Source: Escherichia coli | GTDB lineage: Bacteria; Pseudomonadota; Gammaproteobacteria; Enterobacterales; Enterobacteriaceae | Length of the DNA: 773 nt | Direction: 5' to 3' (one strand) | Assembly (NCBI RefSeq): GCF_003334335.1 | Contig: NZ_QOWQ01000151.1 | Part shown: positions 1-773 of the stretch, piece by piece | Position numbering within the stretch: the first letter of the stretch is position 1 | How the letters are laid out: every line of letters starts with the position of its first letter | Made by a program: the position numbers and the translations under genes | The notes under the pieces: generated by a model | The model's input: only the letters and a program-made list of their open reading frames with translations | What the model was told of the DNA's origin: nothing | The model's database searches: none

Positions 1-773
1 GCCAGCGGCAGGCCGCGATGGTCGCAGTGGTACAGGTGGATTTTTCGCGCCGGCGTGTACACCGGGTCCATCTGGTTTTGCATCTGCTCCACGGTCAGGC
101 CGCACGATGCCAGCCAGCGGCGGCTTTCCTCACTCACCCGGTCAGCCAGGATTTCACTTTCCAGCCGGTCGAGCATCTGCACCAGCACCGGCGGGAACAC
201 CACACTGCCACCGTCTTCGCCGCCGGACTGCTGAAGGGCATCCGCCAGGCTGCGGCGCTGCGTTTTCGCCAGCTCACCGGTGGCGGTTTCAACTCTGATG
301 AGTGGCGTGAAGCTCCCCGGCTGATAAATCGTCTGGATGCGGGTTCTGTCGTTCTGTATTGTGGTCAGCCGGTCGCCGTCCCAGCCGTACCAGGTCACTT
401 GCGGTTTCCGTGACAGCGACATCCAGCCCGTCAGGTCCCGTTCACGCCGCCACACCCGTTTTGCCACCCTGCGGCCCAGCGGGTCGTAAAGATAGCGACT
501 TTCGACCAGCGGCTCTTCATATTGTGTCCGCGTGTAGTGCACCAGCCGGTGCTGACTGTCGTAATGGTACCGGTGAGTCCGCTCATCATCCGTGCGGATA
601 ACCCCTTCCGGGATGAGGTCGGTTTTCTCTGTCAGCCTGCCGTGACGGTCATACCGGTAAAGATAGTGCGCGTCACGGGCGATACGGTTATCCGGCCACA
701 TGCTGAGGGTGCTGTCCGGGTGCAGCTCCGGGTCGGGCAGGCGGTTACCTGCCGGGTCTGTGGCATACGGGAT
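1..773 (-). CDS. rhs: Rhs-family core protein (YD-repeat polymorphic toxin shell), internal fragment, partial at both ends
   Basis: Seen in sequence: the minus-strand frame with codons starting at 773 is open for 257 codons to position 3, with no stop. The translation carries repeated YD-repeat motifs ([47 protein letters not shown]) and ends in [15 protein letters not shown]. Established knowledge: I recognise this from memory as the C-terminal part of the conserved core of E. coli-type Rhs proteins (RhsA/B/C/D family); no database search was run. The paralogue or strain cannot be assigned from this fragment, so the symbol is given at family level only. GC of about 63% matches the known compositional signature of Rhs cores. 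Confidence 0.9.
3..41 (-). other. Start of RHS repeat-associated core domain ([14 protein letters not shown]), truncated by the window edge
   Basis: Translated residues 245-257 resemble the conserved Y-x-x-D-H-L/R-G motif that opens the RHS repeat-associated core domain just upstream of the DPxGL boundary in Rhs and YD-repeat toxins. The domain continues past position 1. Confidence 0.65.
351..398 (-). other. YD-repeat motif (protein level), [16 protein letters not shown]
   Basis: Translated residues 126-141: [10 protein letters not shown], a YD-repeat variant with Trp in the aromatic positions. Confidence 0.6.
459..494 (-). other. YD-repeat motif (protein level), [12 protein letters not shown]
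   Basis: Translated residues 94-105: Y-L-Y-D-x-x-G-R-R, a close match to the YD-repeat consensus. Confidence 0.75.
528..575 (-). other. YD-repeat motif (protein level), [16 protein letters not shown]
   Basis: Translated residues 67-82 contain a Y-x-Y-D...R-L core typical of YD repeats. This copy is degenerate, with Gly replaced by His. Confidence 0.6.
624..659 (-). other. YD-repeat motif (protein level), [12 protein letters not shown]
   Basis: Translated residues 39-50 of the minus-strand frame match the YD-repeat consensus (aromatic-x-Y-D-x-x-G-R-L). Confidence 0.75.

Follow-up and report, generated by a model that had tools for sequence, protein, structure and literature searches.

The stretch of DNA analysed here, referred to as the window over its whole length of 773 nt, carries on its minus strand a reading frame (the reverse complement of nt 3–773) which runs through 257 codons with no stop; the remaining five frames contain between 1 and 13 stops each. 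By itself, this open frame is modest evidence at a GC content of 62.7%: a stop-free frame was also found in 102 out of 5,000 dinucleotide-preserving shuffles. Since about 2% of the shuffles behave in this way, it is homology, rather than the ORF, that decides the identity of the window. The window protein (residues 1–257) matched the NCBIfam family NF041261, RHS_core, colinearly over positions 913–1169 of the 1261 of the model, with E = 1.7e-166 and 556 bits, and full-length copies containing the same window reached 2,645–2,663 bits against a curated cut-off of 2,000. Nucleotides 3–773 are the codons for residues 899–1155 of the Rhs protein, in all five of the contexts in which the surroundings could be read, and codon 1156 begins in nt 1–2. 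The window protein had no match in PHROGs, and hence no link to phages emerged. Almost certainly, the window comes from the interior of an E. coli clade I rhs gene (RhsA/RhsB/RhsC type), in the conserved and GC-rich core, where it covers residues 899–1155 of about 1,400 and belongs to the scaffold of the protein. The feature is a textbook segment of the E. coli rhs core and is already known. Sequences of E. coli rhs cores date back to the late 1980s, and the general architecture of core, tip and immunity gene, together with the PxxxxDPxGL boundary and the displacement of tips, has already been published (PMC2935791, PMC3150448).

The features recognised in the window are reported in Table 1. 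A motif scan of the window protein revealed clear YD repeats at residues 37–50, 67–80 and 92–105, and a degenerate one at residues 126–138. The model TIGR01643, YD_repeat_2x, matched the window protein with E = 9.7e-6 and its best stretch at residues 61–83; Pfam RHS_repeat gave only weak matches on the fragment, one of them at residues 38–52, and twelve matches at E ≤ 0.001 on a full-length copy. The counterpart of the degenerate repeat in the solved Rhs structures is the conserved (F/Y)GWDGDR, and G130, W131 and G133 of the window protein are nearly invariant in the alignment of homologues. At the other end of the protein, the last 13 residues matched positions 1–13 of Pfam PF03527 and aligned with ‘FFHTDHLGTPL’ of Tse5; on a full-length copy, the same family was found at residues 1143–1178 with E = 2.5e-14. 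The start of PF03527 within the window is the point where the C-terminal plug, i.e., the aspartyl autoprotease region, begins. The window encodes the last YD-repeat strands of the β-cocoon, a subfamily-specific helical module of about 70 residues, and the first strand of the plug. In addition, the published primer rhsAF, the forward primer common to rhsA and rhsC in a study on EDL933 (PMC7216683), is an exact match at nt 478–497.

An earlier note, made from the letters alone, had placed the window inside an Rhs polymorphic-toxin core and had described an uninterrupted minus-strand ORF with YD repeats. Both statements were borne out, the former by the NF041261 match and the latter by the 257 open codons with their three clear repeats and the degenerate one. 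The further statement that the ORF ends at the start of the core domain was approximately correct: the first 13 positions of PF03527 do lie at the end of the window, but TIGR03696, Rhs_assc_core, was located at residues 1170–1247 in the five readable contexts and starts 15 residues beyond it.

Table 1. Features located in the 773-nt window (nucleotide coordinates of the strand presented).
Feature	Position (nt)	Strand	Basis
Inner part of a clade I rhs core ORF (E. coli)	1–773	−	NF041261; 100% DNA identity to rhsA/rhsB/rhsC copies
YD repeat, Rhs residues 935–948	624–665	−	Motif scan; weak Pfam RHS_repeat match
YD repeat, Rhs residues 965–978	534–575	−	Motif scan; TIGR01643 best stretch
YD repeat, Rhs residues 990–1003	459–500	−	Motif scan; rhsAF primer site inside
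Degenerate YD-type repeat	360–398	−	Aligned with Tse5 and with RhsA of P. protegens
Helical module of about 70 residues (window protein 165–234, Rhs 1063–1132)	72–281	−	phmmer gap and AlphaFold2
First 13 residues of Pfam PF03527 ‘RHS protein’	3–41	−	Fragment match, E = 0.016
Stretch common to the window and the rhsA orphan fragment	1–207		Part of the 471-nt crossover homology

The helical module sits between the last β-strand of the cocoon and the C-terminal plug. A phmmer search against the PDB left this stretch unaligned, and the distance from the last YD strand (…PL(I/L)R(V/L)E) to the plug (…HxDHLGTP) is 3–30 residues in the solved Rhs proteins vs. about 70–76 in E. coli. An AlphaFold2 model of residues 899–1247, a fragment of 349 residues for which 48 sequences were used, had a mean pLDDT of 85.9 and predicted helices at window residues 165–170, 176–183, 195–209, 215–223 and 228–234, with a pLDDT of 75–96 for this block. 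A scan of 1.84 billion representative proteins returned 421 relatives at E ≤ 1e-30, and a segment of variable length, with the recurring pattern LAxxL…FP…LExEL…LSExSxxWL…GLxxEQ, is retained at this place in relatives with identities as low as about 35%. This confidently predicted module is the one feature that the solved structures leave unexplained. There is a small chance that it is functional rather than a neutral loop, for instance as an anchor or chaperone of the tip, or as a latch for the release or export of the toxin.

By megablast, the window was present in 3,886 of the 5,426 complete E. coli genomes, at 17,565 places in total and with a median of 5 per genome. Exact copies were found in five genomes, in each case in a main rhs gene: in rhsA of UMNF18, YY76-1 and EH09-18-41, with yibF/selAB and mtlA as neighbours, in rhsB of CPF6, adjoining nikR and yhhJ, and in rhsC of JMF1, adjoining ybfA/kdp. 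The same 773 bases are thus found at three unrelated chromosomal loci. The rhsA gene of K-12 differs from the window at 1 base out of 773, a synonymous G/C difference in an Ala codon at position 237, and we observed that most of the other copies share this difference with K-12 rhsA. Which of rhsA, rhsB and rhsC contains the exact haplotype varies from strain to strain, as would fit an exchange of sequence between the cores.

What follows the core was read in five contexts holding the window, namely four of the exact copies and K-12, which departs from the window by one synonymous base; whatever is said of the tip, of the immunity gene or of whether the gene is intact refers to these other genomes, in which the same 773 bases occur. 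In these contexts, the motif DPIGL occurs at residues 1221–1225, 66 residues past the coding end of the window, and PxxxxDPxGL spans residues 1238–1247, with its Asp at 1243, i.e., 88 residues past the coding end. We rejected DPIGL as the cleavage boundary on two grounds: in the solved structures, the chains left after cleavage terminate at the motif that aligns with 1243–1247, those of Tse5 and of the S. bongori Rhs core stopping at the L aligned with residue 1247, and only the second motif has a P at position −5. To the left of position 1, the paralogues remain identical at about 90–100% of ungapped positions for 240–270 nt and then become random with respect to each other. Moreover, the GC content is 62% in the core, 37–41% in the tips and 31–34% in the genes downstream.

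The tips that follow the final L consist of 130, 162, 164 and 150 residues, are mutually unrelated, and are each followed by a small gene, which is yibA, yhhH, ybfB or yibG. The tip of RhsA belongs to Pfam Ntox34 (E = 3e-42) and precedes YibA, a HEAT-repeat protein; the C-terminal region of RhsA has been described as growth-inhibitory and neutralised by yibA (Hill and colleagues, as summarised in PMC3150448). The RhsB tip is DUF4329 (E = 1e-38), followed by YhhH, which matched Imm-NTF2-2 with E = 1e-24. Neither the RhsC tip (L006 6274–6726) nor the rhsA orphan tip (L004 6238–6726) gave a significant Pfam or NCBIfam family, and the same holds in both databases for YbfB (L006 5948–6274) and YbfC; the sequence of YbfB, the putative immunity protein, looks like that of a small hydrophobic membrane protein. 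For YibG, annotated in the records as a Sel1 repeat protein, the matches were below threshold, with Pfam TPR_27 at E = 0.013 and NCBIfam MerG at E = 0.0047, far below the cut-off. Further downstream, at both rhsA and rhsC, there are orphan cassettes made of a core fragment, a tip and a small gene. It is in the two tips without a family, those of RhsC and of the rhsA orphan, both of which adjoin exact copies of the window, and not in the window, that unknown biochemistry remains.

The earlier note had anticipated much of this arrangement. It had expected DPxGL within 80–100 residues of the core domain, where PxxxxDPxGL was found at 88; a short variable tip and then a small gene, as seen in the tips of 130–164 residues and their downstream genes; orphan cassettes beyond them, as at rhsA and rhsC; and a variable part starting a few hundred bp to the left of the window, in agreement with the loss of paralogue identity at 240–270 nt. 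The suggestion that the adjoining part is potentially novel did not hold in the contexts found, which are the classical rhsA, rhsB and rhsC loci of the K-12 type.

At the opposite side, the start codon of the full-length copies lies 2,694 nt beyond position 773. This agrees with an N-terminus expected about 3 kb past the window, although the orphan copy at the rhsC locus has no N-terminus there. As for the PAAR or other delivery domain that had been proposed for this end, a Pfam search with residues 1–180 of RhsA found DUF6531 at residues 46–123 (E = 1e-17) but no PAAR family match; it has been stated that the long rhs genes of EDL933 have a PAAR domain (PMC7216683). The literal tetrapeptide PAAR does occur at RhsA residues 5–8, in ‘KPAARQGD’ (L003 10444–10455, minus strand). 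[quoted passage not shown] No vgrG, eagR or other T6SS gene is annotated within 7 kb of the rhsA, rhsB and rhsC copies, whose neighbours are yibF/selAB/mtlA for rhsA, nikA-R/yhhJ/rbbA for rhsB and ybfA/kdpFAB/phrB for rhsC.

Within E. coli, the known proteins closest to the window are RhsA, RhsB and RhsC of K-12 (NF041261; clade I of Jackson et al. 2009, PMC2935791), with identical DNA or 1 base out of 773 different, the same residues 899–1155, the same DPxGL boundary, tips, downstream genes and GC contrast, and no difference in the window. Beyond E. coli, the top matches of both phmmer and Foldseek were T6SS Rhs effectors, i.e., Tse5 (8cp6), RhsA (7q97), Tse15 (8uy4) and the S. bongori proteins (8qjb-d). 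The solved T6SS Rhs proteins, P. aeruginosa Tse5, P. protegens RhsA, Tse15, S. bongori Rhs and P. laumondii Rhs-Tre23 (7pq5), share with the E. coli protein the YD cocoon strands, the (F/Y)GWDGDR strand, the plug with two aspartates and the DPxGL cleavage site. They differ in having PAAR or VgrG-linked N-termini, whereas the Pfam match in E. coli is DUF6531 only.

From these homologues, which are 20–33% identical to the E. coli protein in the region of the window, and from the literature on their mechanism (PMC8765631; bioRxiv 10.1101/2024.02.26.582050), the mode of action can be inferred. The YD repeats would wind into a closed shell around the C-terminal toxin, and the C-terminal plug would work as an aspartyl autoprotease in which D1221 and D1243 cleave the chain behind L1247, the last residue of PxxxxDPxGL. 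The two aspartates are 22 residues apart, a spacing identical to that of the catalytic D1324/D1346 in P. protegens RhsA (PMC8765631) and of D1369/D1391 in A. baumannii Tse15 (8uy4), and are the putative catalytic pair. The tip, once cut free, would remain enclosed in the shell until its delivery to a neighbouring cell, and the producer would be protected by what the small downstream gene encodes. The near-identical cores and the orphan core fragments are substrates of homologous recombination that swaps the tips, and the window itself is an invariant scaffold carrying no information on the tip attached to it.

Two other systems can be compared with it. TcB-TcC and YenBC, subunits of the ABC (Tc) insecticidal toxins, have the same encapsulation shell and C-terminal aspartyl autoprotease, with a Foldseek E around 1e-8 and a phmmer match confined to the last ~60 residues before DPxGL, beyond the window; they differ in their β-propeller N-terminal cap, in the delivery via TcA and in their eukaryotic targets (PMC8765631). 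The CdiA-CT/CdiI modules of contact-dependent inhibition follow the same logic, with a conserved delivery body, a polymorphic tip, an adjacent immunity gene and downstream orphans, with the boundary marked by VENN instead of the PxxxxDPxGL of Rhs (PMC3150448), but their fold is unrelated and they are exported by two-partner secretion.

The ends of the 773-base record deserve attention, since both are branch points between rhs copies. The base directly to the left of position 1 (locus position 7000 in the locus records L001–L006) differs, G or C, between two core haplotypes. To the right of position 773, the full-length core continues with GCGGATATCC, and the orphan junction (L006 5902/5903) continues with ATCAATGCCC; this junction was found in 2,666 of the 5,426 complete genomes. 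Because both ends of the record coincide with branch points between copies, it is probably a contig that the assembler cut at the boundaries of a repeat and that represents more than one copy. The extension past position 1 proposed in the earlier note therefore has several answers: DPxGL, tip and small gene were indeed found, but in place of a single outcome there are at least four different tips.

The frequency of the orphan junction also bears on the possibility that the copy sampled is a silent orphan of the ybfO type, downstream of rhsC, in which case the tip to the left would be an unexpressed spare, followed by ybfC, and nothing would be found 3 kb past position 773. The ybfO-type orphan of the rhsC locus carries the whole window (L006 5130–5902) at 98.3% identity, and its homology to the full-length cores stops exactly at window position 773. 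On the other hand, there are 13 differences between the window and the orphan copy that was examined, and the five exact matches among the complete genomes are all located in main genes; furthermore, the record, if it is a collapsed repeat, stands for both kinds of copy at once. For these reasons we regard an origin from the orphan as unlikely. The preferred reading, an internal segment of a clade I core shared by several loci, was also weighed against the origin of the window from a decayed rhs pseudogene that no longer makes a toxin. One of the exact copies, rhsA of UMNF18 (L001 6334–10468), is annotated as frameshifted, and we observed that the frame open across the window extends from 10338 to 6337 and does not reach the annotated start; judging from these coordinates, the lesion is near the 5′ end of the gene, outside the window. 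However, the window has neither a stop nor a frameshift and is one synonymous base from the intact rhsA of K-12, and the annotation treats four of the five exact copies as intact, which makes a decayed gene very improbable. Finally, the idea that the real feature is a 131-codon ORF on the plus strand (nt 18–413) or a structured RNA can be set aside as having practically no chance: frame 2 of the plus strand does have one stop in 773 bases, but ORF 18–413 matched no NCBIfam or PHROGs family and is annotated as a gene in none of the six records, no Rfam family reached the threshold on either strand (E ≤ 1; the best, the b55 sRNA, gave 19.9 bits vs. a gathering value of 70, with E = 0.94), and the fold of the coding strand had an unremarkable z-score of −1.07. 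A GC-rich coding frame is expected to have long open frames on the strand facing it, and ORF 18–413 is most likely an antisense artefact of this kind.

Part of the clade I core segment read here also lies in a homology through which tips are exchanged. It has been reported that the rhs cores are near-identical and their tips exchangeable (PMC2935791), and the window cannot tell which tip adjoins it, because the core is identical across the paralogues. A window that falls in a near-identical, multi-copy core cannot be tied to one locus, and claims about its tip therefore need long reads or the assembly graph. As regards the orphan fragments, a blastn comparison with the loci showed that the one at the rhsA locus carries nt 1–207 of the window at 97% identity. 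In EH09-18-41 (L004), one of the strains with an exact copy, a deletion of 1,753 nt fuses the rhsA core to the orphan tip, with yibG next to it, and has removed the Ntox34 tip and yibA. Comparison of L004 6238–7207 with L003 4485–5453 and 6737–7207 placed the crossover in a shared stretch of 471 nt (L003 6737–7207 / 4984–5453) which includes nt 1–207 of the window. The same fusion of core to orphan distinguishes two published genomes of EDL933 (PMC7216683). Other traces were observed around the remaining loci: downstream of rhsB/yhhH (L005 4145–5772) there are a truncated HEAT-repeat pseudogene, similar to yibA, and a transposase of ISEc1 (ISAs1 family), and the ISAs1-family remnants ybfD and ybfQ lie downstream of rhsC. 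The insertion sequences and the yibA-like pseudogene suggest past traffic of cassettes between the rhs loci.
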